Below are positions 21,797 to 40,298 of a stretch of 64,000 bases of DNA, piece by piece. Location: NCBI GenBank assembly GCA_040389185.1, contig JAZKAJ010000019.1:15523-79522 (forward strand), written 5' to 3'. Origin of the DNA: Patescibacteria group bacterium. GTDB lineage: Bacteria > Patescibacteriota > Minisyncoccia > Phycocordibacterales > CAIRYW01. Position 1 is the first letter of the stretch. Each line of letters starts with the position of its first letter. Position numbers and translations under genes: made by a program. Below the pieces are notes generated by a model. That model saw only the letters and a list, made by a program, of their open reading frames with translations, was not told where the DNA came from and ran no database searches.

Positions 21797-21824
21797 AAAC
21801 ACCCCGGTCGGGGTGTTTTTTTGT
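21797..21824. terminator. bidirectional terminator aaacaccccg gtc ggggtgttttttt
   Basis: Hairpin with A-run and T-run flanks, lying between convergent genes. Confidence 0.8.
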
Positions 21825-21831
21825 TTGTACT

Positions 21832-22569
21832 TTATTTCACACTAAAGTTTGCTTTGACTGTCGCAGTGATCTTCTTTTTAATAACAGAGGTATCATATGA
21901 ACCGCTGTCATCATAGTTAACGCTATTCTCTGCCGTTACCTGGAATACTCCAGAAGAAAGTGAAGTGATTTTACCTATATTTGCACCACCCGCATCTGCA
22001 ACGCTTTTGGCTCGTTCGAGCGCATTCTTTGTCGCTTCACTTAGCATATCAGCTCGGATATTCTTAAGATTATTGTAGTAATACTCAACATACTGATTGT
22101 AATCAATGTTTGAGAGATTTGTTGTTATATCTTTTGATAGCTGATCAATAGTTTTGATATCACTACTTTCAACAACAATAGTTTGGCTTAAAGTATAGCT
22201 TGTTATACCGAGCGCACAGTTCTCATACCCTTGTGATGAGAGTGCACAGTGCTGCATATTATTAAGAGTTCCGAGAGTTATTTGTGTTGTAGCGATATTA
22301 TGAGCATTGAGATAATCTTCAATTTTCTTCACAGCAGAATTCACCTGCGGAGTTCCCGCTTCAATTGTCTTTGAATCTACGTTAACTGTGATTTGCCATT
22401 TTGCAGTATCACTATCTACCACACGTTCCGCTGAACCCGTGACCGCGATAGAATCACCCTTGTTTGCAAAAGCTTTGGCGCTATAATTTAAAACAATACT
22501 GGTAATTACGATAGCAAGACCAATAATAAATGCTGGGGCAATAAGTTGATTCTTTTTTATGTTTTCCAT
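21832..22569 (-). CDS. SIMPL/DUF541-like secreted protein (N-terminal TM anchor)
   Basis: Domain pattern by recall; 245 aa. Confidence 0.4.
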   Translation of the reverse strand: MENIKKNQLIAPAFIIGLAIVITSIVLNYSAKAFANKGDSIAVTGSAERVVDSDTAKWQITVNVDSKTIEAGTPQVNSAVKKIEDYLNAHNIATTQITLGTLNNMQHCALSSQGYENCALGITSYTLSQTIVVESSDIKTIDQLSKDITTNLSNIDYNQYVEYYYNNLKNIRADMLSEATKNALERAKSVADAGGANIGKITSLSSGVFQVTAENSVNYDDSGSYDTSVIKKKITATVKANFSVK

Positions 22570-22590
22570 ATTAATTAATATTTTTAATAA

Positions 22591-22995
22591 TTACTTTCCC
22601 CTTATTCCTCCGAGTTTTAGTCTTTGTTCAATTTCAGCATTCTTCTCTCTTTTTGCTCTTCTACACTCCTGAAGAAATAAATTAAGGGCATCATTATAGT
22701 TCTCGATCTGAGCTGGACCCCAATTCAACGAATTTCCAATCCCCCAAGCAAATTCAACCGCTTCCAAATCTTGCCTTACATGCGCAGCGGTGCGGGCTTG
22801 ATGAAATAGATCAAATTCTCGATGCAATTCACGACGATAAGCGGGCCACTCTTCAACCGTAGGAATATGCGGATGACCTTCTTCAACCTCACGAAGAATT
22901 GGTTCTTCAAATGGTGTATCACCAGCAACAGGATCAACTGAAACAACTTCTAAGTTTTCTTGCAATAGTGCTACTGGATTAGTTTCTGATTCCAT
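22591..22995 (-). CDS. hypothetical protein (134 aa; composition less K/I-rich than neighbours)
   Basis: ORF only. Confidence 0.4.
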   Translation of the reverse strand: MESETNPVALLQENLEVVSVDPVAGDTPFEEPILREVEEGHPHIPTVEEWPAYRRELHREFDLFHQARTAAHVRQDLEAVEFAWGIGNSLNWGPAQIENYNDALNLFLQECRRAKREKNAEIEQRLKLGGIRGK

Positions 22996-22999
22996 ACCG

Positions 23000-23701
23000 T
23001 TATTGTATCAAACTCCCCACAAATTCCTTACCTTCAAGATAATTTTCAAGCTCACCTAGTTTCTTTCCATTAATGATTGCCACCTCAAGTCCAATACTTT
23101 CCGACTCTTTACTCGCTACAGGATCAAAGGGACTTGAGAGTCCCGGTGTCCATTTTTTTGGGATTAACTTTCGGAATTCTTTCCAAGTAATTCGTTCTAT
23201 TTTTGTCGCATCTGGGTTTGTTTTTGGATCTGCGGTATAGACATAGTCAATATTGGAAAGATTAATAAGTTTTTTGGCTTTAAATCTTTTTGCGAGGAGC
23301 ACCGCATCATGATCTGAACTAAATCCAGGTTTCCATCCACCTGCCACTATCACACTCTTTTTGAACACAAACTTTTCAAGTGGACTCTGAATGATATGAT
23401 CTTCTGCTTTTGAACCCAGCACAGCTTTGACCAAACGAGCATTCAAGCGTGTTGCATCAATACCAATCCAATCCGCATCAGCAACAGATCCACCAAGCGA
23501 ATTAGCCGCATGTTGATATTTACGACAGACTTTGCCTCCACCAGTAATGATAATAAATTTTTTACCTTTCTTTATCCCGCGAAGTATTAGATCTTTCAAA
23601 GATGAAAGAAAAACAGTATCAATCTCTTCCGGAACGATCATTGAACCTCCTACAGATACCACAACCACCTCTTCCTTTGACTTTTTTGCTGTTTTTTTCA
23701 T
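23000..23701 (-). CDS. pyrH: UMP kinase, archaeal type (amino-acid kinase fold)
   Basis: VSVGGS, IITGGGK.CRKY, GGWKPG.SSD, NIDYVYTADPKTNPDA motifs; 233 aa. Confidence 0.7.
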   Translation of the reverse strand: MKKTAKKSKEEVVVVSVGGSMIVPEEIDTVFLSSLKDLILRGIKKGKKFIIITGGGKVCRKYQHAANSLGGSVADADWIGIDATRLNARLVKAVLGSKAEDHIIQSPLEKFVFKKSVIVAGGWKPGFSSDHDAVLLAKRFKAKKLINLSNIDYVYTADPKTNPDATKIERITWKEFRKLIPKKWTPGLSSPFDPVASKESESIGLEVAIINGKKLGELENYLEGKEFVGSLIQ

Positions 23702-23787
23702 CTTTTATTTAAATTATTTGTTCTTCACACTATACCAAAAAACCTTAATTTTTGCCATTTTACAGCCCTATTGGAGTTTAGAATGGA

Positions 23788-24060
23788 ATGGTACAATTAG
23801 AACATATGCAAGAAAATCAAACACTCGGTGACGGGCAAGACATCATTAGTAATACACCAGAAATCGACCCTCGACAAAAATATGTTGAGATACGTAAAAG
23901 AATGGATGAAGTTACCTCTGAAATTAAAATGGCTGCTCAGGCAGAAGTTAAAGATATAGGAAGACTCGATGATCTTTATGCATTATTAGGAAGTCTCGGA
24001 AAAGAGCTTCATGAAATTGAATTAGACACTTTAGAAAGAGACAAATTAGAACTTGAATAG
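23788..24060 (+). CDS. hypothetical small protein (90 aa)
   Basis: ORF only. Confidence 0.35.
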   Translation: MVQLEHMQENQTLGDGQDIISNTPEIDPRQKYVEIRKRMDEVTSEIKMAAQAEVKDIGRLDDLYALLGSLGKELHEIELDTLERDKLELE

Positions 24061-24061
24061 A

Positions 24062-24637
24062 CTAGATTTTAATAGCACCCATTCGAATAATCTTCGTCTC
24101 TCCATTTTCGATCTCTACAATAGTTGATGGAACAATTGGCAGATCCCCTTTGTCCATATAAAAATCTACACTGGCTCCAAAATATTTTTGTGCCTGATTG
24201 ATGTTTTTTGATGGTCTGTCTCCTTCAGTGTTGGCACTTGGCGCCACGATCGGTCCTGTTGCAGAAATAAACTCACGAAGTTTCTTATCTTTAGGTAGCC
24301 TAAACGCGAGCTTGTTTGTCCCACGATGGAGATACTCAAACTTTTTTTGTTTGCATGGCAATATGACACTCACTTTGTTTGGCCAAAGTTTTTTGAGTTT
24401 TTTTTCCAGTTCAGTATCAATTTTAATATTAAATATATTTAGATCAGAAATTTTTGAGATAAGAATAATGAGAGGTTTGGATGGAGTTCTCTTTCGCACA
24501 ACATAGATTCGCTCTACTGCTTTTTTATTAAGTGCACTCCCAACAATCCCATACATAGTATCTGTCGGCATTACTCCAATTCCTCTTGCTTTAATTGTCT
24601 CAATTATTTCTTTCATAATTATAATTAATTCAAACAC
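24062..24637 (-). CDS. tsaC: L-threonylcarbamoyladenylate synthase (YrdC/TsaC family)
   Basis: VMPTDTMYG, RLPKD, APSANTEG motifs. Confidence 0.85.
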   Translation of the reverse strand: MFELIIIMKEIIETIKARGIGVMPTDTMYGIVGSALNKKAVERIYVVRKRTPSKPLIILISKISDLNIFNIKIDTELEKKLKKLWPNKVSVILPCKQKKFEYLHRGTNKLAFRLPKDKKLREFISATGPIVAPSANTEGDRPSKNINQAQKYFGASVDFYMDKGDLPIVPSTIVEIENGETKIIRMGAIKI

Positions 24638-24730
24638 CCCTCAAATCCCCTCTTTATCCAAAGAGGGGAAGCTAATCCGTATTTCCCCTCCCCTTTGTCC
24701 AAAGGGGAGGCTGGGAGGGGTTTGAGTTTT
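24633..24730. repeat. GC-rich palindromic intergenic repeat, copy 2 (two hairpins plus the core ggggaggctgggaggggtttgagtttt)
   Basis: Shares modules with 4376-4467. Confidence 0.6.
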
Positions 24731-24746
24731 GAATTTATTTCATTCA

Positions 24747-26028
24747 TTAGAGTTTCGCGATTAATTCCTCAATCTCCATTGTTGTACTTTCCATCCCCAT
24801 TCCACCCGCCACAATTCGTAGTATTGGCTCAGTATTTGACGATCTGATATTAACCCAAAACTCATTAAAGACAAATGTGAGTCCATCTCGCCTATCAATT
24901 CGATTTGCCCTTTTTCCTAAAGATTTTTCGACTTCAGTATAAATCACCGCCATATCTTTGCCTTCTGTTTTGATTTCTTTTGTGGTTACTATATGCTCTC
25001 CAAATTCTTTTTGCCATTCTGAAAGATTCTTTTCCATCTTTGAAATAGAATTCAAGAATGTAATCGCAGCAAATATTCCAGAATCAGCATTAAAGAACTC
25101 TTTAAAATAATAGTGTCCAGAATATTCCGCTCCAAAGTCCGCATTTTGACCTCTGAGCGTCTCTTTGATGAAATATGCACCAATTCTCGATGGTACCATT
25201 TGCTCCTCTGGAACAAGCTTCAAAAGCCTCACAGACTGATATACAAGTTCATCGAGAATGTAGGGTGGATTAAATTCGCTCTTCAGAAGCCCTACTACAA
25301 AACATGCAGGAATCATCTCTCCTCTATCATCCAAAAAGAATGCACGGTCTGCATCAGCATCAAACATTAGACCGAGATCTGCACCATTTTCAAGTATCGC
25401 TTTTTTACACTGTAGACTCGCCCCATCAAGTAATGGATTTGGTCCATGGGCTTTAAAATCAGCGTCAATCTCATCGTTTATAACAATCGCATTCACGTTT
25501 GTCTCTGCAAATAAGTCTTTTATTATCATTCCTGCAGGACCATTGGATACATCAAAAATTACTTTGAGAGGCTTACTCACATTTAACTTTTTCTTCAAAA
25601 AATCTATATAAGTATTTTTATAATCCATTTGTTTCAATAACCTTGAGTAATTCGATACCACTAAAAGGCAGCGCTTTTTCTTTGACCGCTTTGACTCCAC
25701 TGTATTCTTTTGGATTATGAGATGCGGTGATCATTACACCCCCTGAAGCCTTGAAGTGATTAACAAGAAAATAAAACATCGGGGTCGTCGAAAGACCAAC
25801 AGAAATTATTTCAAATTTTTTGTTCAAAGTTTCACCGTACGAAACGATTTCCTTTTCGAGAGTTGCTGTTAGCTCTTCGCCACCATGTCGTCCATCTCGA
25901 GCAACAACGATACTTCCAGATGGAAGAAGTATTGCGAGCGCATGGGCAATTACCGTCACAGCCTCAACATTTACATCTCTAGGATATATTCCACGAACAT
26001 CATAAGCTTTAAATATCTTTTTATTCAT
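24747..26028 (-). pseudogene. phosphoglucosamine/phosphomannomutase (alpha-D-phosphohexomutase) interrupted by a single-nucleotide frameshift near 25620-25650
   Basis: The N-terminal ORF 25618..26028 has TASHNP. The C-terminal ORF 24747..25700 has the domain II-IV pattern. The two overlap in different frames around LLK. Confidence 0.6.
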
Positions 26029-26146
26029 CCCCGTTTCGAAGCAGGTCGCGGTCGGTCCGCTTCTGCTCGGTTTAATTTATAAACGTTTTTTCTGTTCATA
26101 TTAGATTTATATTTAATTCAAATCGTGACCGCGGCTTCGAACGGGG
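26029..26146. mobile_element. MITE-like hairpin element B (variant termini ccccgtttcgaagc / gcttcgaacgggg)
   Basis: Inverted termini related to the family TIR. It abuts the ATG of the phosphohexomutase gene. Confidence 0.5.
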
Positions 26147-26407
26147 TCATCCCGTTCGAAACAGGAAGCGCTTTAATCTTGCTTTAAGATAACACTTACC
26201 TCTTCCAGATTTTAAATATAATTCTCTCGATCGAGCATCATCTTCGTTAATTGAGGCTTCATAATATACGAGTATAAACGGGCCTCTGCCTTTTGTCCAA
26301 GTCGATTCACCATTTTGATGTTGTTTAAAGCGCTTCCGTAGATCCTTTGTAAATCCAGTATAAAACTTACCATCTTTGGTACTCATTATTATGTAAGTGT
26401 AGAACAT
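26147..26407 (-). CDS. GIY-YIG nuclease domain protein (86 aa; YhbQ/COG2827-like)
   Basis: FYTYIIMS...GKFYTGFTKDLRKRFKQH...E...R.RELYLKSGRGK motif set. Confidence 0.65.
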   Translation of the reverse strand: MFYTYIIMSTKDGKFYTGFTKDLRKRFKQHQNGESTWTKGRGPFILVYYEASINEDDARSRELYLKSGRGKCYLKARLKRFLFRTG

Positions 26408-26429
26408 AACTGAGGGGTTTCGAACGGGA
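26150..26429. mobile_element. 280-bp element A with perfect 13-bp TIRs (tcccgttcgaaac / gtttcgaacggga) carrying only a GIY-YIG gene
   Basis: TIRs read directly. The left TIR encodes the C-terminal residues FLFRTG* of the nuclease. Confidence 0.6.
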
Positions 26430-26837
26430 TTAATTCCCAGGGCAAGGTGCGAATTCACAATTTGGTCCCTGTCGCCCGATATAAGATCCATCAGGACACT
26501 GTTTTGCTTCCATAGTACAAGCCACTTGATCTCCTGGTTCATCTGCAGAATGAGGTGGCGCCACTGGGTCAGGTTGACTTGGATCATAGGGAGTTTCTGT
26601 AACAGGAGTAGGATATGTATATTCGTTTCCCTCAGGCAGAGGATACGCTTTGAAATTTCCGTTAGTTGGAACAGTAATATTCATTGGTGGTCGAGGAGAA
26701 ATATCTACCGGAATGTTTCCATTATTACTATTAAAAAACGGCCTATGAAATACAACTGGCCAGAGCCAGATGATGAGATACACAATGAATATGATACCAA
26801 TGATTTGCCATATTTTGTCGTTTTCTTTCATGTTCAT
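26430..26837 (-). CDS. secreted or membrane-anchored Pro-rich protein with a Cys-rich C-terminus (135 aa)
   Basis: N-terminal TM; C-terminal CTMEAKQCPDGSY..CEFAPCPGN. Confidence 0.5.
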   Translation of the reverse strand: MNMKENDKIWQIIGIIFIVYLIIWLWPVVFHRPFFNSNNGNIPVDISPRPPMNITVPTNGNFKAYPLPEGNEYTYPTPVTETPYDPSQPDPVAPPHSADEPGDQVACTMEAKQCPDGSYIGRQGPNCEFAPCPGN

Positions 26838-26931
26838 ATTTTATCATAGGGGTAAGAAGTTATAAACTGCTTTGCATATTTTATATATATGCTATATTGA
26901 AAAAAGAAATTACCACCCCACCCTCCACACT

Positions 26932-27408
26932 ATGAAAGACCAGCTACTTGACCACCTTAATGAACACCTCCCGGCCTACGGCCTTTTTGTGCTAATTCTC
27001 CTCATTCTGATAGCAACAGGAATTGCATTCCCATTTGTAGCAGAATGGGCAGGCCTGCCCAAATGGCGCTGGCACAGAACGCAGCAAGATGAAAAGCAAT
27101 TCGGTAAACCCTTTATCCTGAAACCAGGGGAAGACAAAAACTATGAGTATTCCGATGGAACGCTCACTGTCTGGTTTACAGGGGTGAATGAGGGGATCCT
27201 ACTCATCGTTCTCACCTTCATCTTCAAAGAGAAGAGACCTGAAAAGGAAAGAAAGGGTAAAGATGACGACGGCACTATAGCAATATGTCACCGTCTCCAA
27301 CTACACCCAGGGGCAACGATTGTACCCAATCGCCTTCCCGCACAACACCACCTATCAGTTCTCTGTGAAAAGATTGGGAATGAATATCAATTCAAACTCA
27401 GCCCCTAA
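26932..27408 (+). CDS. hypothetical membrane protein
   Basis: ORF with two hydrophobic helices, followed by a terminator. Confidence 0.45.
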   Translation: MKDQLLDHLNEHLPAYGLFVLILLILIATGIAFPFVAEWAGLPKWRWHRTQQDEKQFGKPFILKPGEDKNYEYSDGTLTVWFTGVNEGILLIVLTFIFKEKRPEKERKGKDDDGTIAICHRLQLHPGATIVPNRLPAQHHLSVLCEKIGNEYQFKLSP

Positions 27409-27435
27409 ACGGATGAAGTTCATTCAAGGACCATG

Positions 27436-27476
27436 AAACCCGCGACCCATTCAATTGGTGGCGCGGGTTTTTATTT
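27436..27476 (+). terminator. hairpin aaacccgcg..cgcgggttt plus T-run
   Basis: 9-bp GC stem. Confidence 0.7.
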
Positions 27477-27502
27477 TATAGAAATTTTATTCAGCTATAA
27501 AT

Positions 27503-28135
27503 TTACAATCCAAAATGAAGATCCATCTGGTCTTGGTAATATTTTCGTACTTCAACATTCTTTATCTGATCACTTACATAATTAGAATGCCAATCCCTTT
27601 CTTTTCTTTGGCTTACTATTCTATTTGGATCTGTCACAATCTCCCCAATATCAGTCAGAATGATCTTACCCTCACTATTTAATCCAAAATTCACTGCGAT
27701 CTTGAAACTAAGATCAATAAATCCAAGCTCCATCATCTTTTTGTTTAATATTATAAATTCATCAACCAGTTTTTTGGCTTTTTCTGTATCCAAGTTATTC
27801 AATAGTTTCTGAAGTGGTACAACTTTGTCTTGAGTATAATCAAAGTTTGGCAGGAGTTCTGGATTACCAATGAGATCTTTCGGTATTTTATTTTGTCTCA
27901 ATATTTCAAATGACCGAGTCACTTCTGCCACCATTCGTTTTGATTCTTTATGGATATCGAGAAAAGACATCTCAGAATTAAATCCGATATGAAAAAATCT
28001 GTTCAAAGGAGATCTAAATTTCTTGTAGACTCTTCCGTTTCCCATATCGTATACAACATGTTGCCATCCACCGCCAAGTTTTTTCATATTCATAATTATA
28101 TTAAATATGACACACATCTGCATCATTCTTTCCAC
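27503..28135 (-). CDS. hypothetical protein with a possible atypical kinase-like fold (Gly-rich loop LGGGWQHVVYD, VYKK, DLSFK..N, ILTDIGE)
   Basis: Motif resemblance only. The likely start is an internal Met near 28087. First gene of a minus-strand operon with the Nudix array. Confidence 0.4.
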   Translation of the reverse strand: MERMMQMCVIFNIIMNMKKLGGGWQHVVYDMGNGRVYKKFRSPLNRFFHIGFNSEMSFLDIHKESKRMVAEVTRSFEILRQNKIPKDLIGNPELLPNFDYTQDKVVPLQKLLNNLDTEKAKKLVDEFIILNKKMMELGFIDLSFKIAVNFGLNSEGKIILTDIGEIVTDPNRIVSQRKERDWHSNYVSDQIKNVEVRKYYQDQMDLHFGL

Positions 28136-28148
28136 AGAATAAGGGGTT

Positions 28149-28679
28149 TTATTTTAAATAATTAGATAGTAGTTCATATTCTTCCGAACGTGGCTGAAGA
28201 TCTGTTTTTCCATCTTTAACCCATTTTTTGAAAGTGTCCAGGGATATATATTCCACCTTTTCCACTTCACCGTCACTAAATCTGAAATCTTCAATTTTTA
28301 AATCTGTTTTTAGGAGATAAATATCGTTAAATTGATTATCAATAAATGTACCACCATTTAGAATAGAACAGTTGATCACTGTACTTATAAACTTAAGATC
28401 ATCTTTCTCAATAACAATACCTAATTCTTCTTCTGATTCACGAACGGCACTTTCCAAACTTTCTTCTCCTGCAGAAATGTGTCCCGCAACAGATACATCC
28501 CATGTATTTGGATACGAGATCTTATCTTTTGATCGGAGCTGAAAAAGAATTTCATTTTTAAAATTAACGAGCCATACATGCACCGTTCGGTGCCAAAGTC
28601 CCAGAACATGGACCTCATCCTTAGATTTAATCAAACCAGTCTTATTCCCCTTTTCATCTAACACATCTAAGTATTCCAT
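28149..28679 (-). CDS. Nudix hydrolase
   Basis: GHISAGEESLESAVRESEEELG Nudix box. Confidence 0.8.
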   Translation of the reverse strand: MEYLDVLDEKGNKTGLIKSKDEVHVLGLWHRTVHVWLVNFKNEILFQLRSKDKISYPNTWDVSVAGHISAGEESLESAVRESEEELGIVIEKDDLKFISTVINCSILNGGTFIDNQFNDIYLLKTDLKIEDFRFSDGEVEKVEYISLDTFKKWVKDGKTDLQPRSEEYELLSNYLK

Positions 28680-28682
28680 AAT

Positions 28683-29174
28683 TTATCTTTCAATATTAAT
28701 ATATCTGCCAAATGTTGGAATAAAGTCTGACGGAGAATCCTTGTACCAAGTTCTTAATTCCTCAATATTTACCCAGCGAATTTCGGCCACTTCATTATCC
28801 TGTTTTTTGAACGCTTCAATTGACTTATCTACTACAACTAGAAAAGTAGTCGAGAAATACTTGTGACTTGTTTCTCTATACTCATGTGATACAAATTTTA
28901 TATCAGATTCAGAGATAATAAGACCTATCTCTTCTTCTGCCTCCTTTATGATATTAGATTCATATGTCTCCCCCTCCTCCACCGTTCCCGCAACTGCAGG
29001 ACCCCATTTGCCCGGATCTGTCTTTTTACTCATTACCCTTTGGGCAATGAGCATTTCGTTTTTTGAATTAAGTATTACAAGCCCTGATACTCTACCAATT
29101 TCAGATGGAAGTCTTTCGTTTCGAGGTCTGTAGCCGATTATCTCGTCTTTTTCGTTTACAATGATTACGTTCAT
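28683..29174 (-). CDS. Nudix hydrolase (paralog of 29179..29673)
   Basis: AGTVEEGETYESNIIKEAEEEIGL. Confidence 0.8.
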   Translation of the reverse strand: MNVIIVNEKDEIIGYRPRNERLPSEIGRVSGLVILNSKNEMLIAQRVMSKKTDPGKWGPAVAGTVEEGETYESNIIKEAEEEIGLIISESDIKFVSHEYRETSHKYFSTTFLVVVDKSIEAFKKQDNEVAEIRWVNIEELRTWYKDSPSDFIPTFGRYINIER

Positions 29175-29178
29175 ATGC

Positions 29179-29673
29179 TTATTTTTTTATATTAACATAA
29201 TACCCAAAAGTTGGAATGAAATCTTCAGGGGTGTTTTTGTACCATTCTCGAAGTTCATTCATATTTACCCAACGAATCTCTTCCACTTCTTCATCCTCCT
29301 TTTTGAATTCCGTTATTGGCTTATCAGCAATAACTGAAAATACAGTTGAGAAGTATTTAAAACTTGTTTCTTGGTATGTATGTAATACAAACTTTAAATC
29401 TGATTCCTTGATACAAAGTCCGATTTCCTCTTGTGCTTCTTTGACTATATTTGATTCATAAGTTTCACCTTCTTCAACTGTACCAGCAACAGCCAGATCC
29501 CACTTACCTGGATCATTCTTTTTGGTCATCACCCTCTTTCCCAGAAGCATTTCATTGTTTGAATTAAAAATCACGAGCCCTGCAACCCTGCTGATATCTG
29601 TGGGTAATTTCTCATTTCGAGGTTTGTATTCAATTATTTCATCCTTTTCATTAACAATGATTACATTAGGCAT
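29179..29673 (-). CDS. Nudix hydrolase (paralog of 28683..29174)
   Basis: AGTVEEGETYESNIVKEAQEEIGL; about 70% identical to its neighbour. Confidence 0.8.
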   Translation of the reverse strand: MPNVIIVNEKDEIIEYKPRNEKLPTDISRVAGLVIFNSNNEMLLGKRVMTKKNDPGKWDLAVAGTVEEGETYESNIVKEAQEEIGLCIKESDLKFVLHTYQETSFKYFSTVFSVIADKPITEFKKEDEEVEEIRWVNMNELREWYKNTPEDFIPTFGYYVNIKK

Positions 29674-29706
29674 CTTTCAATTATAGCAGAATGCGTTGGA
29701 TTTATT

Positions 29707-29746
29707 AAAAAAATACCCTAGGCTGATGCTCAGGGTATTTTTTTAA
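29707..29746. terminator. bidirectional terminator aaaaaataccctagg...cagggtattttttt
   Basis: Hairpin flanked by A-run and T-run. Confidence 0.6.
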
Positions 29747-29764
29747 AAAACTATTTCTAATAAC

Positions 29765-29950
29765 TTATTTCACCTCTGGGGCAGCGTCCCAATTCTTATG
29801 AAACTCAGTTTCCCATTCCTCGTGCTCAGTCTCTGTCATATTGGACATCTTCTCAGCAACCTCAGGATGTGACTTCATAACATGTTCAGTCATTTTTTTT
29901 TGCCATATCGCTGCTCGTTTCTGCACAGATCTCCATATCACAATCTCCAC
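29765..29950 (-). CDS. small hypothetical protein (61 aa, His/Glu/Trp-rich)
   Basis: ORF only. Confidence 0.35.
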   Translation of the reverse strand: MEIVIWRSVQKRAAIWQKKMTEHVMKSHPEVAEKMSNMTETEHEEWETEFHKNWDAAPEVK

Positions 29951-30032
29951 CCATCTCTCTACAAGTCATTGTTTTCATAATTATCTTTATATTTAGCTTA
30001 TATAAAGAAAAGACGGTCCAGGGTATTAAATA

Positions 30033-30536
30033 TTAAATTGACGCTTTATAAAAAGGTTCTGTGCCGTACTTTTCTTTGTATCTCTGCATTATTTCTTGTT
30101 GATAAGTACTAAGCTTGTCTTCTGGAATATTTTCCAGCTTCGTAAAGAAAAGTCTTGAACACTTGTCTGGTTCTTGTATAGTTGGTATGCCAGAAATAAG
30201 TCGGCAAAGATAGATTGGCAAAACCCACCAGAAATTTGGATCTTTTGTACTCGGACGAATTATAACAGTAAACAATGTGTCGATAGACACCTCAATATCT
30301 CCTACTTCTTCTTTTATTTCTCTCTGCAAAGTCTCGTACAAATCAGTCTCACCTTCATCAACAGCACCACCCACTCCTTCGAGTGTTCCCGGTTCACTTC
30401 GTACTTTTTGTCCACGCTCTTGGAGTAAGAGTTCACCATTTTCATTGAAAATAAGAGCAGCCACAGCTACTCCGTAGTTTATTGGAGCGTTCTCTTGCGA
30501 GGATACATAGCTTCTTAATTCATCTATAAATTGCAT
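30033..30536 (-). CDS. Nudix hydrolase
   Basis: GGAVDEGETDLYETLQREIKEEVG. Confidence 0.8.
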   Translation of the reverse strand: MQFIDELRSYVSSQENAPINYGVAVAALIFNENGELLLQERGQKVRSEPGTLEGVGGAVDEGETDLYETLQREIKEEVGDIEVSIDTLFTVIIRPSTKDPNFWWVLPIYLCRLISGIPTIQEPDKCSRLFFTKLENIPEDKLSTYQQEIMQRYKEKYGTEPFYKASI

Positions 30537-30550
30537 ACTTTCTATATATT

Positions 30551-31042
30551 TTAAGAGTTTAAATCACAAACCTTAGTTTTTTTATCCAAATCTTCTTGAT
30601 CAAGAAGATAAATTCCGTGTTTGCCTGGAAGTGTGTAAATCGTTGTGTGCGGTACAGGAGGTAAAATATTTAATCCAAATTTTTTATTTACTAAATCATA
30701 AAAATCAGAAATATTTGAAGATTTACACATAACAACGACAGATTTTCGATCGTTACCCTCAACATATCTGTATTCATCACCAAATTCAACCTCTATATCA
30801 TTATTGATCAAAAATTCTGTGAGCATTCCCTGAATATCATCTTCAGTTAAGCTAAGTTCATACTTCTCATTAATTTCATTAACAGGAAAAAGACTTATGT
30901 GATAAATATCTTTCAGTACAAGTTCAACGCCTTTAATGGAAAGTTTCTCTGGATACTCTCTTGGCAAATCAGTCTTTTCAATCCTAAGTGCCAGGGTTTT
31001 ATTTTGACTAAAGAAACATTTTTCTGAATTAAAGATAGGCAT
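30551..31042 (-). CDS. hypothetical protein (163 aa)
   Basis: ORF packed into the operon. Confidence 0.45.
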   Translation of the reverse strand: MPIFNSEKCFFSQNKTLALRIEKTDLPREYPEKLSIKGVELVLKDIYHISLFPVNEINEKYELSLTEDDIQGMLTEFLINNDIEVEFGDEYRYVEGNDRKSVVVMCKSSNISDFYDLVNKKFGLNILPPVPHTTIYTLPGKHGIYLLDQEDLDKKTKVCDLNS

Positions 31043-31054
31043 AATAGAAAATAT

Positions 31055-31567
31055 TTATACTTCCAAGTTTGGATCGAAAATCATTTTATAGTGAGTATCC
31101 GTTTCTTCTTCTTTAATTTCTTTAAACCCCGATCTGTCATATAGCCTCTTAGCATCATTATTTTTCAAAACTTGAAGTCTCAATAACTTGTTTTCTGTTA
31201 TTGCTCTTTGAATTATTTGCTTTAAAATCCTAGTACCAATTCCTTTACCTTCAAATTTGGGAGATATGACCAGTTCATCAAGCAGAAGATGATCACCTTC
31301 ATATTCAACATTACAATAACCAACTTCAGTACCGTCAGCTAATATGATTTGATAAGTAGCAGGCGCCCAACAATTTCTAAAAAATTCATCCTGTTTTGCC
31401 ACGTCCCAACCAAATCTTGACTTACTCACAACATCTTCATACGCATCATGATGCGTCTTTAATGCAAATTCGTAATCCGCTTCCGTTGCAGGACGAGTGG
31501 TTAGTACATTTTCTACACTTTCATCTTGAATTAATGGCTGACCATCTAGTGTTTGTTTCATAATCAA
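31055..31567 (-). CDS. GNAT family N-acetyltransferase
   Basis: EGKGIGTRILKQII motif A. Confidence 0.7.
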   Translation of the reverse strand: MIMKQTLDGQPLIQDESVENVLTTRPATEADYEFALKTHHDAYEDVVSKSRFGWDVAKQDEFFRNCWAPATYQIILADGTEVGYCNVEYEGDHLLLDELVISPKFEGKGIGTRILKQIIQRAITENKLLRLQVLKNNDAKRLYDRSGFKEIKEEETDTHYKMIFDPNLEV

Positions 31568-31741
31568 ATTATATCATAGGACCTAATTCATATTCCCACC
31601 CTGCCTGCCATTTAAATGGAGTAGAGGTGGATTGTTCAAGAGGTATGTTTTGATATAGAAATCAAGTGCATACTGGGTGGCTCGATGACCGATTATCATA
31701 ATCTTTCTCGGCAAGGGGTCCAACCCCTTGCTGTACCCTAA

Positions 31742-32509
31742 CTAATCGGCTTTGGTTGAAAAATCCCCTTTTTCAAATTGAATCTTACGATTAGGAGTCA
31801 TACTTTTTGAAAGATAGGATACCAAGTTTTCAGCAATCTCCTTACACTCCCCAGTTAGTTCAATATATAACATTGAGCCACGCAAATCAGCGAATTCCCA
31901 TTGAAAACCCAATAGACCATTCTCACTGACAACCAATTTAACTAATTCAGAAATATTCTTTTCTGCTTCTCCTTGATTTTTCACTAAAAGATGTCTAATA
32001 GATTTCAAATAAAAGAGTAGTATTTGATCAGATGTTTCTTGAAAAATATTTTTCTTTAACTTTGGCTGATTTTGAGACATTTGAATATAATCATCAAATG
32101 TTTCGAAGTCGCCAATAAATAATAAAGCTTCGCATAAATTACTAAATACTGTTGGATCAGGACGTATATAAAAAGCTTCTTTCCATTTATGAAAAGCTTT
32201 TAAATAATGGTTTGATCTCATTTCGCTTAACCCAGCCTCATCAAGGCTTATAAATCTTGTCTCAACAAGTTGCCTAAGTCCAAAATATGCAGCAAAAACT
32301 GCCAGAAACAAAGTTGCGCCTTGAACCAAAAGATTTAGAACGGATAACTGATCATTTACAGTAACAATGATCCCTGTTTCAAATAGGAGTAACCAACCGA
32401 TTATCACAAAAATAAATAGTCCCAATATTATAGTAGCCCAAAACCTTGTATTGAATGAAGGATAACCGAATAATTCTTCCCACAAATCTTTCTTAACTTT
32501 TTTAGACAT
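31742..32509 (-). CDS. hypothetical membrane protein (two N-terminal TM helices, helical-repeat C-terminus)
   Basis: ORF only. Confidence 0.45.
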   Translation of the reverse strand: MSKKVKKDLWEELFGYPSFNTRFWATIILGLFIFVIIGWLLLFETGIIVTVNDQLSVLNLLVQGATLFLAVFAAYFGLRQLVETRFISLDEAGLSEMRSNHYLKAFHKWKEAFYIRPDPTVFSNLCEALLFIGDFETFDDYIQMSQNQPKLKKNIFQETSDQILLFYLKSIRHLLVKNQGEAEKNISELVKLVVSENGLLGFQWEFADLRGSMLYIELTGECKEIAENLVSYLSKSMTPNRKIQFEKGDFSTKAD

Positions 32510-32516
32510 GAATTAT

Positions 32517-32738
32517 TTAATTAAATTCAAAGACAACAACACCCCTACCAATTGCCGCTATTCTTTCCAAACTGACGGGCAATAATTTTTGTGCATTTCT
32601 AATATATAACTTTGCGCCAGATGAAACAGCCAAACTAGCAAACCGATCAAGGCTCATTGGTAAATAATACGATGCATCGACTGATACACTACCACCAATT
32701 GATATTATTCTTTCTATACTCTGTGGTAAAAGTGACAT
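32517..32738 (-). CDS. hypothetical protein with an internal duplication (LPQSIERIISIGGSVSV / LPVSLERIAAIGRGVVV)
   Basis: ORF only. Confidence 0.35.
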   Translation of the reverse strand: MSLLPQSIERIISIGGSVSVDASYYLPMSLDRFASLAVSSGAKLYIRNAQKLLPVSLERIAAIGRGVVVFEFN

Positions 32739-32881
32739 AATTATGATTTATTATTTTTACTTCTAAATTTTGGATGCAGTTCGAGGCGTGGACGAGCGAC
32801 AACGACCAAGGTGTACTCAGATGTACTCTGCGGGAGTGTCGCGAGTCCACAACGAAGAAATGCGCCGAAATTTAAAGTAAA

Positions 32882-33883
32882 CTATTCTGCCTTCTTATGG
32901 CTTCCACTTGCTGAAGAATCCACCTCATAACTTGTGTTTTGAGACTCAAAGAAGTTCACGAGCTCATACACATCCGTCGCACCTGCCATCCACTTCGCAG
33001 GATTAGTCACTCCAAATTGTTTTTCAAGTCCAAGCTCTTCGAGTCGTCGGTCCGCTACATACTGCACATACTGGTTCACGTAGTCCGCATTCAAACCGAG
33101 AATTCCTGTTGGGAAAAGATCTTTGTTGTAAGCGTTTTCAAGTGCCACGCCTTCGATAACGATACTTTTAATCTCAGCTGCAAATTCTTCTGTCAAAAGG
33201 TCTGCATTCTCCTCGAGCACATTGTGAATGAGGTTGATACCGAATTTGAGGTGAAGAGATTCATCTCGAAGTACCCAGTTGATCATTGAACCGAAGTTTC
33301 GGAGCTGGTTTCGCTGTCGGAATGAAAGAGCCACAAGAAATCCTGAGTAGAACCAAATTCCTTCCATCACAATATTGTACGCAACAAGGTTTCGAATAAA
33401 ATCCTTCTTCCCTTCTGTTGTTTCAATATCAAGTCTGTCATCAGTCATTCGAGTGAGATATTTCATCACGAATGCTTCTTTCGCTTTCATTGATTCTACT
33501 TCGAGGTGTACATTGTAAATAGTCTCTCGGTCAAATGGGAATGTTTCAAGCACATATTCAAACGCTACACAATGGTTTGCCTCCTCCCACATTTGCTTTG
33601 CAAGATACAAGTGACACTCAGGAGATTTGAGGTATGGATACACACCGAGAGCGAGCACACGGTTCACAATGAGTTCTCCAGGGTTGAAGAATGCCATAAC
33701 GAACTTCACCGCATGCCGTTCATCCTCTGTCATTTTTTCGAAGTCTGCAAGGTCTTCCTTGAGCGCAATTTCGTGTGGGAACCATGTGTTTCGTACAGCC
33801 TGGTTGTAGAGATCATACGCCCATTGATATCGTAGCGGGTGCAGGTTTACATCTTCTGGTGACGGTTTTCCGATGAGAGTCAT
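32882..33883 (-). CDS. nrdB: ribonucleotide reductase class I beta subunit (R2)
   Basis: Di-iron ligand pattern (EEANH..., E..H); 333 aa; adjacent to nrdA. Confidence 0.8.
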   Translation of the reverse strand: MTLIGKPSPEDVNLHPLRYQWAYDLYNQAVRNTWFPHEIALKEDLADFEKMTEDERHAVKFVMAFFNPGELIVNRVLALGVYPYLKSPECHLYLAKQMWEEANHCVAFEYVLETFPFDRETIYNVHLEVESMKAKEAFVMKYLTRMTDDRLDIETTEGKKDFIRNLVAYNIVMEGIWFYSGFLVALSFRQRNQLRNFGSMINWVLRDESLHLKFGINLIHNVLEENADLLTEEFAAEIKSIVIEGVALENAYNKDLFPTGILGLNADYVNQYVQYVADRRLEELGLEKQFGVTNPAKWMAGATDVYELVNFFESQNTSYEVDSSASGSHKKAE

Positions 33884-34006
33884 AAAGGATAATTTTTAAT
33901 TTTATAATTCTAAATTTTTAAACCTAATTTCAAAGTCTTAATTTTAGGTCTAGAAATGATAGCATTTCACCTACAAAATTACAAAATTTGAAATTGAAAA
34001 TTCTGT

Positions 34007-36811
34007 CTACTGACAACTGTCACACTGAGCAAGCTCTGCAGGGTCTGTAGGACATGTCTTTGCTCCTGCGAAGATTACTTTAGGTTTTGCTTTAACCTCT
34101 GAGAATCCTCCTCGAGAAACTTCTGAAAATCCGCCTCGTGGTGCCTCGTAAGCTGGCGCTGTGTTTCGTACTGGCTCATTGATTGATCGAAGTCGATCGA
34201 TATCAAGTGAAGGCTGGATTGATGCTGGAACAGAGACAGGTTCTGGTGCTACGTATGCCATTTGTGGAACATGTTGTGGAGCCGGTGCATATACGGGAGC
34301 CGCATGTTGAACAGGTGCTACATGTGCGTGAGCAACAGGCTGTGCAATCGGCTCTGGCTCTACTGTCATTGTGATTGGTGCAGAGTCTGCCAAGAGTTCT
34401 GATTCGTCAGACATTTTTACTTCTGCTGTTTTTTTCAAAGCTCCGAATCCTACCTTTCCTGTCATTGAAGACTTGTTTACATTCACAGTACTTTGTTCTG
34501 CTGTGTGTCGAGGCTTCATGTGGAGGTAGTATGTACTCTTCACACCTTTCTCCCACGCTGTCATATAGATCTTCATTGTCTCATCGATGTCTCGTGTATC
34601 GAGATACATATTTCGAGAGATCGCCTGATCCATCCACTTCTGAGCTCGTGCTGCGACTTCGATAAATGCGTACGCTGAAGTTGTAAATGAAGTTTTGTAG
34701 ATTGCTTTGATGTGATCTGGAATTTCTGTGATACCTGAAATATCTCCCTGGAATTCTACAATTTTTTCTTTTACTTCTTCCCAGAGTCCAAGGTTCTTCA
34801 AATCTTTTACAAGGTTATGGTTGATGTCGAGATATTTTCCAGAAATCTTGTTTCGAGAGAACACCTGTGCGAATCGTGGATCAACTCCAGGAGTTGTCGC
34901 TGCAATGAGTCCAATGTTTGCGTTCGGTGCTGTCGCAAGAAGTGTTGCATTTCGCATTCCCTTCTTTACCTTTGCTCGAAGCACATCCCAGTTGAGTCCT
35001 TTGTGTTTGCTTTCTCGTGAGACTGTGACTTTGACTCCTCGATCCTTCTCCATCACATCAAGAGTATCAAATGGCACCATTCCTTTTGACCATCCTGATC
35101 CTTCGAAGTGTTTATAGCTTCCTCTTGTGACTGCGAGATTCGCACTTTCGTCGTATGACATGTAGCTTATGAATTCAAAAATTCTGTCGATGAAGTCATA
35201 TGCAGGAGCACTCTCGTATGGAAGTCCCATTTTCTCGAGCGCATCTGCAACACCCATCACTCCAAGTCCTACCGCTCGGTTCTCACTGTCAGATTTGACT
35301 GCTTCTGGTACCGGAAGAACGTTGATGTCAATAAGGTTGTCAAGCTGTCGGATCGCAAGTCGTACTGATTCTTCGAGTTTACCCCAATTGATTTCTTTGT
35401 TTACTACGTGAACTGCGAGGTTCAAAGATGCAAGGTTACATACCGCGATATTGTCTTTGTCCTGTGGAAGACAGATTTCTGTACAGAGGTTCGACATGTG
35501 AATTGTCCCTGTATTGTTGTTCATTGCTCGGAGATTAATATTGTCTTTCCAGGTAATCCAAGGATGTGCTGTTGTCTGAAGAGAAATAAGCATCTTTCGG
35601 AAAAGTTCTGTTGCAGGCACTTGCTTGAATACTCTGAGTTTCCCTGCCTTACCTAGTTCTACATATTCTGTATATCGAAGACTAAATGCATTACCATAAA
35701 GTTCACAGAGGTCCGGTGTTTCTGCAGGGTCAAACATATACCACGGAGCATTACTTTTTACCCGCTTCATGAATTCGTCAGAAATAAACGCTGCGGTGTT
35801 CGCAGTTCTCATTCGAAGATAGTCATCTCCCGCATTGTGCTTCCAATCGATAAAGTCTGGGAAATCACAGTGCCAGTTCTCCATATAGAATGCGAGCGCA
35901 CCCTTTTTCTTGCCACCTCGCTGAATAGCTCGGATCGCTGTGTCGATAATTTTTGCAAAAGGAGTAGGTCCTGTTGATACACCATTGTTTGATTTGAGTG
36001 GAGATCCTGTTGCTCGAAGTTTTGTTACTGATGCGCCGATTCCTCCTGATCCTTTTGAAAGAAGCATCACGTCTGCAACAGATTTTGCAATGTTAGTCAT
36101 ATCATCTTGGATCTCAAGAAGAAAACAGTTTGAAAGTGCTGGGCTTACTGTACCAGCACCAAGGTTTGTAGATCCTCCAGCAATGTATTCAAATCGAGAC
36201 ATCTTGTTGTAAAATCTTTTTGCCCACATTGTAGGATTCTCTTCGTTGTAAGAAAGTCCCATCGCAACTCGCATAAAGAAATACTGAGGAGTTTCCCTTG
36301 GAGTCTGATCCATATTTTTGAGTGCATATCTGTTTTCAAAAGTTGAAAGTCCTGCGTACTGGAAAAGTTCGTCTCTTTCAATGTTTAGAGCCTTTGAAAG
36401 TTCTTTGAGATCAAATTTTTCTACCATCCGTGGATCGAGCTTGCCATCTGCAACACTTTTTTTGATGAACTCGACAAATCCTGCCTGATGTTTGAGATCG
36501 AGATCATCATCATTGTCCTTGTCATACTCGCCCACCACCTTTCGGTAGATGGTTTTGAGCAAGAGCCGAGTCGCCACTTTGTCATAAGCAATATCATCCT
36601 TCACGTTTTGAAGCGCGGCATTGATGGTCGCCTGGTCCATCTCGTCTGTTGTGATGCCGTCATAGAGTGTAAGCTCTGTTTCTGTGGCGATCTGTGTCAC
36701 CATCGAGATTGGATCCATAAGTCCCTGACATGCTCGCTCGATAGACTTGTTGATCTTGTCCGCGTTGAAAGGAACTTTTGTACCGTCAAACTTTGTAATT
36801 GATATGCTCAT
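34007..36811 (-). CDS. nrdA: ribonucleotide reductase class Ia alpha subunit with an ATP-cone and a long low-complexity C-terminal extension
   Basis: N-terminal ATP-cone (VPFNADKINKSIERAC), catalytic core, C-terminal CPTDPAELAQCDSCQ pair; 934 aa. Confidence 0.9.
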   Translation of the reverse strand: MSISITKFDGTKVPFNADKINKSIERACQGLMDPISMVTQIATETELTLYDGITTDEMDQATINAALQNVKDDIAYDKVATRLLLKTIYRKVVGEYDKDNDDDLDLKHQAGFVEFIKKSVADGKLDPRMVEKFDLKELSKALNIERDELFQYAGLSTFENRYALKNMDQTPRETPQYFFMRVAMGLSYNEENPTMWAKRFYNKMSRFEYIAGGSTNLGAGTVSPALSNCFLLEIQDDMTNIAKSVADVMLLSKGSGGIGASVTKLRATGSPLKSNNGVSTGPTPFAKIIDTAIRAIQRGGKKKGALAFYMENWHCDFPDFIDWKHNAGDDYLRMRTANTAAFISDEFMKRVKSNAPWYMFDPAETPDLCELYGNAFSLRYTEYVELGKAGKLRVFKQVPATELFRKMLISLQTTAHPWITWKDNINLRAMNNNTGTIHMSNLCTEICLPQDKDNIAVCNLASLNLAVHVVNKEINWGKLEESVRLAIRQLDNLIDINVLPVPEAVKSDSENRAVGLGVMGVADALEKMGLPYESAPAYDFIDRIFEFISYMSYDESANLAVTRGSYKHFEGSGWSKGMVPFDTLDVMEKDRGVKVTVSRESKHKGLNWDVLRAKVKKGMRNATLLATAPNANIGLIAATTPGVDPRFAQVFSRNKISGKYLDINHNLVKDLKNLGLWEEVKEKIVEFQGDISGITEIPDHIKAIYKTSFTTSAYAFIEVAARAQKWMDQAISRNMYLDTRDIDETMKIYMTAWEKGVKSTYYLHMKPRHTAEQSTVNVNKSSMTGKVGFGALKKTAEVKMSDESELLADSAPITMTVEPEPIAQPVAHAHVAPVQHAAPVYAPAPQHVPQMAYVAPEPVSVPASIQPSLDIDRLRSINEPVRNTAPAYEAPRGGFSEVSRGGFSEVKAKPKVIFAGAKTCPTDPAELAQCDSCQ

Positions 36812-37106
36812 TTTTTTATTAATATTTTATTCATCCGGAGTCATGTAAAAAGACGATAACAAATTTGAGAATTACGATCGCCTGTTTAAATAACTTCGAA
36901 AAGTACTTTTAATGTGATTCGCTTACTATTTTACCTTAAAAAAAAGTGGATTGCATAGTGGAAATCGATCAAAATGACCATTCCGACACAAAACAAAACT
37001 CGCTTCAAGTGAACCGCCAAAGGAGGCTTAATTTGCGGTTCGATTCGAGGCATGAAAATAAAAAATAAAAGTCAAGAAGGAAGAAGTTGTGCTCAATAAT
37101 AACTCA

Positions 37107-37145
37107 AAATGCACCGAAGCTTCGCTTCGGTGCATTTTCTTTTCA
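37107..37145. terminator. hairpin gcaccgaag cttcg cttcggtgc plus T-run
   Basis: 9-bp stem. Confidence 0.7.
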
Positions 37146-37179
37146 TTATTACTCACTACTCATTACTTTTGACTTAAAA

Positions 37180-38592: not shown

Positions 38593-38630
38593 ATTGTTTC
38601 CATTTTACCAGAAAATGAAACAAGGGGCAA

Positions 38631-38672
38631 AAACAATGCTGGGCCGCATAAGCGGCCCAGCATTGTTTTTTA
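38631..38672. terminator. hairpin aaacaatgctgggccgc ataa gcggcccagcattgttt plus T-run
   Basis: 17-bp perfect stem. Confidence 0.8.
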
Positions 38673-38689
38673 CAATTTTTGTTTCTCTA

Positions 38690-39583: not shown

Positions 39584-39624
39584 AGAATTTTATTTTTTTA
39601 TAATTTTATACTTCCTATCTTACA

Positions 39625-40251: not shown

Positions 40252-40263
40252 TTCATCTTTCTT

Positions 40264-40298
40264 CCGCCTCAACCCCACCAGGTTGAGGCAGTTTTTAT
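40264..40298 (+). terminator. hairpin gcctcaacc ccacca ggttgaggc plus T-run
   Basis: 9-bp stem. Confidence 0.7.

Follow-up and report, generated by a model that had tools for sequence, protein, structure and literature searches.

Four Nudix hydrolase genes in a variable slot beside ribonucleotide reductase of a Patescibacteria genome, with a probable role in nucleotide sanitation and salvage

We analysed a 64,000-nt stretch of a Patescibacteria metagenome-assembled genome (MAG), called the window here, to which all coordinates refer. The source genome belongs to the Patescibacteria (candidate phyla radiation, CPR) and is Paceibacteria/Taylorbacteria-like. We found that four minus-strand genes of the window, N1 to N4, encode Nudix proteins with complete catalytic motifs, that they lie between the genes of class I ribonucleotide reductase (RNR) and phosphoglucomutase (PGM) in a slot whose content varies among relatives, and that Nudix domains are locally in excess. 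The reading that we favour, with a probability of about 0.6, is that ordinary Nudix pyrophosphohydrolases have accreted in this slot in a lineage-specific manner and would serve nucleotide-pool sanitation and salvage in a scavenging symbiont. As Nudix enzymes, they would hydrolyse the diphosphate bond of nucleoside di-/triphosphate derivatives, with Mg2+ held by the Glu-rich box. The seven Nudix domains of the window are as follows (IDI, isopentenyl-diphosphate isomerase; HMM, hidden Markov model; the gathering threshold of the Pfam NUDIX model PF00293 is 21.1 bits).

28149-28679, minus strand: N1, YfcD/IDI-like Nudix protein, 176 aa (PF00293 E 1.3e-13, 51.6 bits)
28683-29174, minus strand: N2, IDI-like Lys-box Nudix protein, 163 aa (PF00293 E 6e-20, 72.1 bits)
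29179-29673, minus strand: N3, IDI-like Lys-box Nudix protein, 164 aa, paralog of N2 (PF00293 E 4e-19, 69.4 bits)
30033-30536, minus strand: N4, generic MutT-like Nudix protein, 167 aa (PF00293 E 6.9e-16, 58.9 bits)
4488-4880, minus strand: stand-alone Nudix gene, 3 nt downstream of YchF (PF00293 E 1.7e-15, 57.7 bits)
53191-53655, minus strand: Nudix gene in a second block (PF00293, 56.2 bits)
1492-1959, minus strand: Nudix domain nested in LeuS, residues about 383-538 (own HMM 66.9 bits; motif scan; NCBIfam)

An initial annotation of this DNA had called the same four genes, two further Nudix genes at 4488 and 53191 and a domain inside LeuS. The list of open reading frames (ORFs) together with PF00293 matches at E 1e-13 to 6e-20 confirmed the four, and Pfam, the motif scan and NCBIfam confirmed the other three; neither an iterated HMM nor a regular expression revealed an eighth Nudix domain in the window. 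In a seven-way alignment, the Gly and the four Glu of the box were invariant. The canonical Nudix box (G x5 E x7 R E U x E E x G U) is found in N1, in the gene at 53191 and in the LeuS insert. N2 and N3 carry Lys in place of Arg (G x5 E x7 KE x2 EE x G), a Lys that is invariant across their family; in the N4 box one residue is inserted (G x5 E x8 RE x2 EE x G), and in the gene at 4488 the final Gly is replaced by Asp. The core E...(R/K)E..EE was retained in all seven boxes, so that the catalytic Glu, whose loss the initial annotation had considered, are kept in 7/7 of them. Judged from these motifs, N1 to N4 are genuine Nudix hydrolases with intact catalytic residues.

In NCBIfam and PDB profile searches, the best matches of N1, N2 and N3 were type-1 IDI, YfcD and DR_0079, and the alignments to the YfcD and DR_0079 structures were near full length (E 1e-7 to 3e-14). 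The cut-offs of the type-1 IDI models were not reached, either for NF002995 (cut-off 127; N1 63.5, N2 55.1, N3 50.4) or for TIGR02150 (cut-off 105.8; N1 50.9, N2 39.2, N3 32.5). The catalytic residues of E. coli IDI are Cys67 and Glu116. Alignment to the E. coli IDI chains showed Ala at the Cys position in N1 (SVAGH) and in N2 and N3 (AVAGT), and the Glu segment ENEV aligned to non-acidic residues in all three, so that Glu116 is unconserved. E. coli Idi is of the same fold subfamily, and differs from N1-N3 also in its gene context, which is one of nucleotide metabolism in N1-N3, and in its box: IDI carries RRAxEE in place of the hydrolase Nudix box (PMC5389931), whereas N1-N3 keep the full hydrolase box with (R/K)E x2 EE. 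These results suggest that N1-N3 are IDI-like Nudix hydrolases and not isomerases, and we rejected an isomerase function on the cut-offs and the catalytic residues. Many N2 homologs are named isopentenyl-diphosphate delta-isomerase by JGI, which is probably a mis-annotation. YfcD (PDB 2fkb) and DR_0079 (PDB 1q27/2o5f) share with N1-N3 the N-terminal extension of the IDI-like clade and a functional hydrolase Nudix box; they differ in that identity is low, no equivalog threshold was reached, and N2 and N3 have the invariant Lys for the box Arg. The best PDB match of N4 was the Bartonella MutT 3hhj, and N4 scored below every NCBIfam equivalog cut-off.

The relatives used for comparison were GCA_964554765.1 (locus L002), Taylorbacteria GCA_028286725.1 (L088) and GCA_040384165.1 (L005, L006 and L173). 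N1 has orthologs in the second (61% identity) and third (62%, L005) of these and at locus L087 (46%). For N2, 1541 homologs were found, and a pattern scan with one genome per species detected relatives of the N2/N3 family in 282 GTDB species representatives. Gene contexts were counted at the best 80 of these 282 loci. Bacteria among the 80 included Paceibacterota and Nomura-, Morani-, Lipton-, Magasanik-, Wolfe-, Komeili- and Veblenbacteria, while DPANN archaea included Woesearchaeota, Pacearchaeota, Nanobdellota, Nanohaloarchaea and Micrarchaeota. We found Tmk immediately upstream of the N2-family gene in 13/80 loci and at most four genes away in 19/80, Dut immediately downstream in 17/80, and ArgRS within four genes in 21/80; the order Tmk-[N2 family]-Dut occurred in about 20/80. 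Serine hydroxymethyltransferase (SHMT) and a homolog of the Nudix gene at 53191 often stood just upstream. On the 785-kb contig L172, the N2-family gene is accompanied by Upp, a uridine-kinase-family Udk, another Nudix gene, a P-loop kinase and HIT, and in the lineage of the window it lies beside class I RNR (L002, L088 and L173). The theme that recurs in these contexts appears to be pyrimidine and deoxynucleotide metabolism, and our proposal for the substrates is based on it.

According to a study cited in PMC5158307 (ref. 86), DR_0079 prefers cytosine (d)NDP/(d)NTP; its kcat/Km for CDP is 2e4. N2 and N3 would most likely act on pyrimidine (d)NDP/(d)NTP, and may work alongside RNR, Tmk and Dut by trimming or sanitising the deoxynucleoside triphosphate (dNTP) pool, while N1 (YfcD-like) and N4 (MutT-like) would cover other substrates. 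The block could be part of a wider set of phosphohydrolases (2H, HD and MazG; CYTH, His_Phos or HIT in relatives). CPR bacteria are described as lacking nucleotide biosynthesis and relying on scavenged nucleotides (PMC8080830), and such a set would let a nucleotide-scavenging symbiont clean and rebalance the nucleotides that it imports. This proposed role is like that of MutT/NudG/NudI-type house-cleaning enzymes and of MazG, dUTPase and HD 5'-nucleotidases, which hydrolyse non-canonical or excess (d)NTP/(d)NDP, and Dut, Tmk, MazG-like and HD/YfbR-like genes are found together with the Nudix genes; in contrast to MutT, NudI, NudG and NudB themselves, 0/7 domains reached the respective equivalog cut-offs.

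The initial annotation had described N2 and N3 as recent tandem duplicates of about 70% identity. The identity was borne out (72% of amino acids over 162 aa, 71% at the DNA level), whereas the recent origin was not: nonsynonymous divergence (dN) was 0.18 and the proportion of synonymous differences (pS) was 0.80, that is, synonymous sites are saturated. In a neighbour-joining tree, N3 grouped with the upstream copy in GCA_040384165.1 (L006_a, 87%) and N2 with the downstream copy (L006_b, 77%). Each copy thus has its own ortholog in a second genome, and the duplication therefore predates that split. N2 and N3 each retain all 20 residues that are invariant in the family, and both are probably functional.

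The slot in which N1-N4 lie is the region between class I RNR and PGM, and its content differs among relatives. The RNR pair (32882-36811, minus strand) forms its conserved left border.

32882-33883, minus strand: class I ribonucleotide reductase beta (Pfam labels of syntenic genes in L002, L088 and L173; DNA matches to the window)
34007-36811, minus strand: class I ribonucleotide reductase alpha (same evidence)
Slot in GCA_964554765.1: 202-aa gene, CYTH, one N2/N3-like Nudix
Slot in Taylorbacteria GCA_028286725.1: ClpP, EEP, DUF2000, DUF1059, one N1-type Nudix (61%), kinase-like
Slot in GCA_040384165.1: His_Phos_1, GNAT, 2H, N4, DUF2000, N3, N2, N1, kinase-like
Slot in the window: GNAT, 2H, N4, DUF1059 (frameshifted), N3, N2, N1, kinase-like

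The four-gene set is found in at least two species and appears to have grown from one gene within the lineage. We compared synonymous divergence (dS) between the window (region 21800-41300) and GCA_040384165.1, gene by gene. The values were low for DAO (0.03), 2H (0.03), o26872 (0.02), SIMPL (0.04) and the kinase-like gene (0.11), intermediate for RNRa (0.19) and GNAT (0.36), and higher for RNRb (0.61), N4 (0.62), PGM_I (0.88), N3 (0.9-1.1), N2 (about 2) and N1 (about 2); RNRb and PGM_I are far more diverged than their gene neighbours. This uneven divergence, in which dS of adjacent genes runs from 0.02 to above 2, forms a recombination mosaic whose extreme is reached in N1 and N2, which indicates frequent homologous recombination among diverged CPR populations. 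The dN/dS ratios of N1-N4 were 0.07-0.14, showing that these genes are under purifying selection. Diversifying selection as a cause of the N1/N2 divergence was considered and rejected on these low ratios, on the saturation of dS and on the same mosaic in housekeeping genes.

The seven domains in 64 kb correspond to 109 per Mb, compared with about 13 per Mb in CPR flanking DNA, and the unusually high local density that the initial annotation had claimed was therefore upheld. In 1.26 Mb around N2-family genes we counted 31 additional Nudix ORFs, at 59 per Mb within 1 kb, 44 per Mb at 1-3 kb and 12.7 per Mb (10 ORFs) beyond 3 kb. Other Nudix genes are thus 4- to 5-fold enriched within 3 kb of N2-family genes, and 27/31 are co-oriented with the seed. 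A second, small sample gave 13.2 per Mb (2 ORFs) around Nudix-bearing LeuS genes and 3.8 per Mb around other LeuS genes. For comparison, the 4.6 Mb of E. coli contain about 13 Nudix genes, or about 3 per Mb. Counting the Nudix genes within 20 kb at each N2-family locus (n=80), we found one at 55 loci, two at 19, three at 6 and four or more at 0. The Poisson probability of at least 7 domains with 0.81 expected is 2e-5, and when the tandem block is taken as one event, 4 sites remain, with a probability of about 0.01. These results show that the local excess is real and that Nudix genes tend to cluster in these organisms.

Two of the Nudix domains outside N1-N4 have contexts of their own. The LeuS ORF (220-3105, minus strand) encodes 961 aa, and its Nudix domain is nested in the CP1 editing domain: NCBIfam leuS_bact matches LeuS in two stretches with the Nudix domain between them (box at 1747-1812). 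The insert of 156 aa replaces a 12-aa loop, residues 364-375 of Thermus thermophilus LeuRS, about 20 residues past the AHD motif of the editing site. The whole LeuS-Nudix junction was matched by 27 metagenomic loci, 20 of which keep the canonical box (ORFs of 930-1220 aa), and a literature search found no relevant paper on a LeuRS-Nudix fusion. We speculate that the domain may be linked to Ap4A or to adenylate side-products of the synthetase. The Nudix gene at 53191 belongs to a second block, which lies within a split transketolase gene.

51165-54928, minus strand: second block, between the split transketolase halves (Pfam)
54062-54928 and 51165-52160, minus strand: transketolase N and C halves, a split gene with four genes between
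53691-54059, minus strand: cupin (Pfam)
52571-53287, minus strand: HD/YfbR-like 5'-nucleotidase-like gene (Pfam)
52180-52560, minus strand: MazG-like gene (Pfam)

The second block is in an operon with Rpe, RpiB and GAPDH (pentose-phosphate), and may serve nucleotide house-cleaning, or catabolism that feeds the pentose-phosphate route.

The initial annotation had read N1-N4 as a single tandem operon with spacers of 3-14 nt. The short spacers hold for N1-N2 (3 nt), N2-N3 (4 nt), N4 and the 163-aa gene then called hypothetical (14 nt), and that gene and GNAT (12 nt), whereas N3 and N4 are 359 nt apart. Three features were found in this gap.

29765-29978, minus strand: DUF1059-like small gene with a +1 frameshift (one extra A in the run 29893-29901)
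29705-29751, minus strand: predicted intrinsic terminator with a hairpin and, after it, a U-run (dG -21.5 kcal/mol, z -4.83, 0/200 shuffles as stable)
29680-29708, minus strand: best sigma-70-like promoter match of the region, TTAATA-17-TATAAT with a TG extension (consensus match only)

The predicted terminator and promoter and the DUF1059 gene between N3 and N4 make a single four-gene operon unlikely, and that claim was abandoned. There are probably two units as predicted from these signals, GNAT-2H phosphoesterase-N4-DUF1059 and then N3-N2-N1-kinase. The co-orientation of the kinase-like gene, the 163-aa gene and GNAT with N1-N4 was correctly noted, but upstream and downstream had been reversed: GNAT comes first in transcription and the kinase-like gene last. 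The U-run of the terminator overlaps the -35 element of the predicted N3 promoter, whose -10 element ends 6 nt before the N3 ATG, a leaderless-like start. The likely start of GNAT is ATG 31561, also with TATAAT 6 nt upstream; on the minus strand, the two arrangements lie at 29673-29685 (N3) and 31561-31573 (GNAT). A Shine-Dalgarno-like purine run was not seen upstream of most genes in the cluster region. These observations suggest leaderless or near-leaderless starts. The 174-nt spacer before GNAT (31575-31741, minus strand) has a G+C content above its surroundings and no Rfam match, and opens with a perfect 7-bp GC-rich hairpin (CAAGGGG-TTGGA-CCCCTTG) without a U-run. In the E-value mode of Rfam, the region 29600-31800 gave only chance-level matches to the terminator hairpin.

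After correction of the frame, the DUF1059 product of 70 aa matched PF06348 with 24.8 bits (cut-off 21.1), and an intact 70-aa ortholog lies at the equivalent place in the Taylorbacteria MAG (L088 6383-6595). The frameshift may have arisen as an assembly error in the homopolymer, may mark a pseudogene, or may be programmed. A Logan contig (SRR26324622, 5.8 kb) is identical to window 27529-33320 and has the same A-run, but may stem from the same reads.

The genes that flank N1-N4 within the slot are the following (PKL, protein-kinase-like).

31055-31567, minus strand: GNAT acetyltransferase (Pfam Acetyltransf_1 and Acetyltransf_7, E 1.5e-12; 168-aa gene call on L001)
30551-31042, minus strand: 2H phosphoesterase superfamily protein, 163 aa (H48/H132 motifs; 156 representative homologs)
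27503-28087, minus strand: minimal PKL fold protein, 194 aa (AF2 pLDDT 90.7)

In the 163-aa protein (AF2 pLDDT 94.3), H48 and H132 were invariant in 49 sequences, with the consensus FHVSL and THVTLYT, that is, two HxS/T motifs. These two motifs are shared with LigT, viral 2',5'-phosphodiesterases, Acb1 and the 'Swiss Army Knife' 2H proteins. The top Foldseek matches in PDB and BFVD were 2H phosphodiesterases, but the fold scores were weak (E 3e-3 to 0.08, TM 0.3-0.54) and no Pfam model reached its threshold; LigT_PEase matched 4/49 family members, below threshold. With moderate confidence, we assign the protein to an unnamed subfamily of the 2H superfamily. For the 194-aa protein, Foldseek found the AceK kinase domain, Rio2, PRPK/Bud32 and COQ8 (E 2e-5 to 5e-4); 74 PDB matches had E <= 1e-3, and all 50 that were listed are kinases. 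It shares with these proteins the PKL fold, the Gly-rich loop, the Lys and two Asp, and G7, K22, D125 and D146 were invariant; it differs in being much smaller, with 12-18% identity, no Pfam match and only 10 homologs found. The earlier label 'kinase-like' was thus well chosen. A distant homolog sits between SHMT and FolD.

Several observations weigh against accretion for nucleotide sanitation and salvage. The scores to all NCBIfam equivalogs were far under the cut-offs (at best 46.2/152 for YfcD NF011922, 40.4/97.9 for MutT TIGR00586 and 38/103 for NudB NF006961), and hence no specific activity can be transferred. PMC5158307 describes the CDP activity of DR_0079 as weak and its physiological substrate as unknown. 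Of the sampled loci, only about a quarter showed the Tmk/Dut context. When 112 unlabelled neighbours of N2-family genes were scanned with Pfam, no family dominated outside the Tmk/Dut clade, and the neighbours there are a mixture (HAD, alpha/beta hydrolases, MazG and CYTH). It is not obvious what part the 2H, GNAT and PKL neighbours would play in dNTP sanitation. Only 10 and 2 ORFs underlie the baselines of 12.7 and 13.2 per Mb, shuffled sequence yielded more promoter-like sites than the real sequence did, and promoter and terminator are predictions. The initial annotation had itself connected the Nudix genes with a nucleotide salvage and sanitation lifestyle, and had allowed that a merely local cluster would speak against it. 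The first part is consistent with the context (RNR, Tmk/Dut, Upp/Udk/HIT and the HD/MazG block). On the other side, L002 and L088 have one Nudix gene in the same slot, so that the window looks like a local hot spot, which weakens the lifestyle reading on the annotation's own terms.

A bolder form of the nucleotide reading, which we put forward only tentatively, holds that the Lys-box IDI-like family would be a signature enzyme of ultrasmall symbionts (CPR and DPANN) with a dedicated step in pyrimidine deoxynucleotide metabolism, and that Nudix functions would have been amplified in the Taylorbacteria-like lineage (four tandem genes, a Nudix/HD/MazG block in the transketolase operon and a LeuRS-nested domain) as a strategy for scavenged nucleotide pools. 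If the favoured nucleotide reading is right, the cluster provides concrete candidate enzymes for the poorly understood way in which CPR and DPANN symbionts, which do not make nucleotides de novo, handle the ones they scavenge. The uncharacterised N2/N3 family occurs in 282 or more species representatives, its members are routinely labelled, probably wrongly, as isopentenyl-diphosphate isomerase, and a corrected annotation and a substrate for it would improve metabolic reconstructions of CPR and DPANN. The Nudix gene group in itself is ordinary biology and implies no new mechanism; of greater interest, as by-products, are the widely conserved Lys-box family and the nesting of a Nudix domain within the editing domain of LeuRS. 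In the literature that could be searched, no description of four tandem Nudix copies beside RNR was found, and nothing relevant on Nudix enrichment in CPR.

A function in NAD/ADP-ribose or RNA-end processing seems unlikely to us. Here the 2H protein would open 2',3'-cyclic or 1'',2''-cyclic phosphates (Appr>p, 2',3'-cNMP), the Nudix proteins would split ADP-ribose-type or capped products, and the PKL and GNAT proteins would modify the products or an RNA/protein partner. The 2H-superfamily gene does adjoin N4, CYTH and His_Phos_1 occur in the same slot of relatives, and at L087 a 2H homolog lies 3 kb from two tandem Nudix genes, beside an inositol-monophosphatase-family (Inositol_P) gene. However, the 2H-Nudix linkage is inconsistent (3/80 N2-family loci, 7-10 kb apart), the N2 family has its most strongly conserved neighbours in Tmk and Dut, and the search for a signature of ADP-ribose pyrophosphatases was negative: matches to the NCBIfam models of YffH/AdpP and NudF type had E > 1e-4, far below their cut-offs.

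Less probable again is a chance local pile-up, in which one old tandem duplication and neutral gene shuffling in a variable region would have produced the cluster against an ordinary genome-wide Nudix content. The single Nudix gene in the slot of L002 and of L088, the roughly 13 Nudix ORFs per Mb already present in CPR DNA, and the two or three Nudix genes within 20 kb at 25/80 related loci would all fit. What argues against chance is that 0/80 loci had four or more Nudix genes, that four independent sites in 64 kb still have a probability of about 0.01, that all copies are under purifying selection, and that the four-gene set is conserved in a second species.

We consider it improbable that the cluster is an anti-phage or conflict island whose Nudix, 2H and kinase proteins would break down or alter nucleotide second messengers, or drain a nucleotide pool upon infection, and the defence role suggested by the initial annotation was not sustained. 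The match to PADLOC PDC-S07 (E 1e-11) is to a generic Nudix domain (about 40 bits, E 1e-5 to 5e-12), the remaining proteins scanned, in the cluster and beside it, had no match below E 0.002 (PADLOC-DB 2.0, ten proteins in all), and the locus has no partner of the sensor, nuclease, TIR, SIR2 or cyclase kind. The content of the RNR-PGM slot is variable among relatives, no genes diverge more than N1 and N2 between two otherwise close genomes (dS about 2, versus 0.02-0.1 in immediate neighbours), and viral phosphodiesterases and Acb1 are among the weak fold matches to the 2H protein, all of which would suit a defence island; against this stand the low dN/dS (0.07-0.14), the same mosaic divergence in RNRb and PGM, and the N2 family being single-copy in housekeeping operons across CPR.

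Least probable of all is that N1-N3 serve isoprenoid metabolism as isopentenyl-diphosphate isomerases or as diphosphatases of isopentenyl or dimethylallyl diphosphate (IPP/DMAPP), since the type-1 IDI matches and the JGI names that favour it are offset by scores at or under half of the IDI cut-offs (63.5 vs 127; 50.9 vs 105.8), the altered catalytic positions, the full hydrolase box and gene neighbours that are nucleotide enzymes, none of them isoprenoid.

The remaining window is an ordinary CPR chromosome, with LeuS, YchF, an MltG-like gene, AdoHcyase, two PfkB kinases, riboflavin genes and ATP synthase, and also a split PGM, class I RNR, Ddl, UvrC, FBA, the split transketolase, Rpe, RpiB, GAPDH, GatB, Obg and MYG1. 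At the Rfam gathering score, one tRNA (44277-44349) was found and nothing else, with no riboswitch or small RNA in the intergenic regions. PGM is present as two overlapping ORFs on the minus strand, domain I at 25618-26028 and domains II-IV at 24747-25700. Since the identical split is called in three relatives, PGM seems to be a gene whose division is conserved, rather than one broken by an error. Two adjacent 136-aa ORFs (49816-50646) were considered as paralogs and rejected, as they show no similarity. A Cas2-like/PaaX_M-domain protein stands alone at 12253-12738 (plus strand), with no CRISPR array nearby, and its homologs lie beside N2-family Nudix genes in 8/80 related loci. The AI-2E transporter ORF near the window end (63369-63794, minus strand) matches only the C-terminal 127 of 327 Pfam profile positions, and may be a truncated or frameshifted gene.

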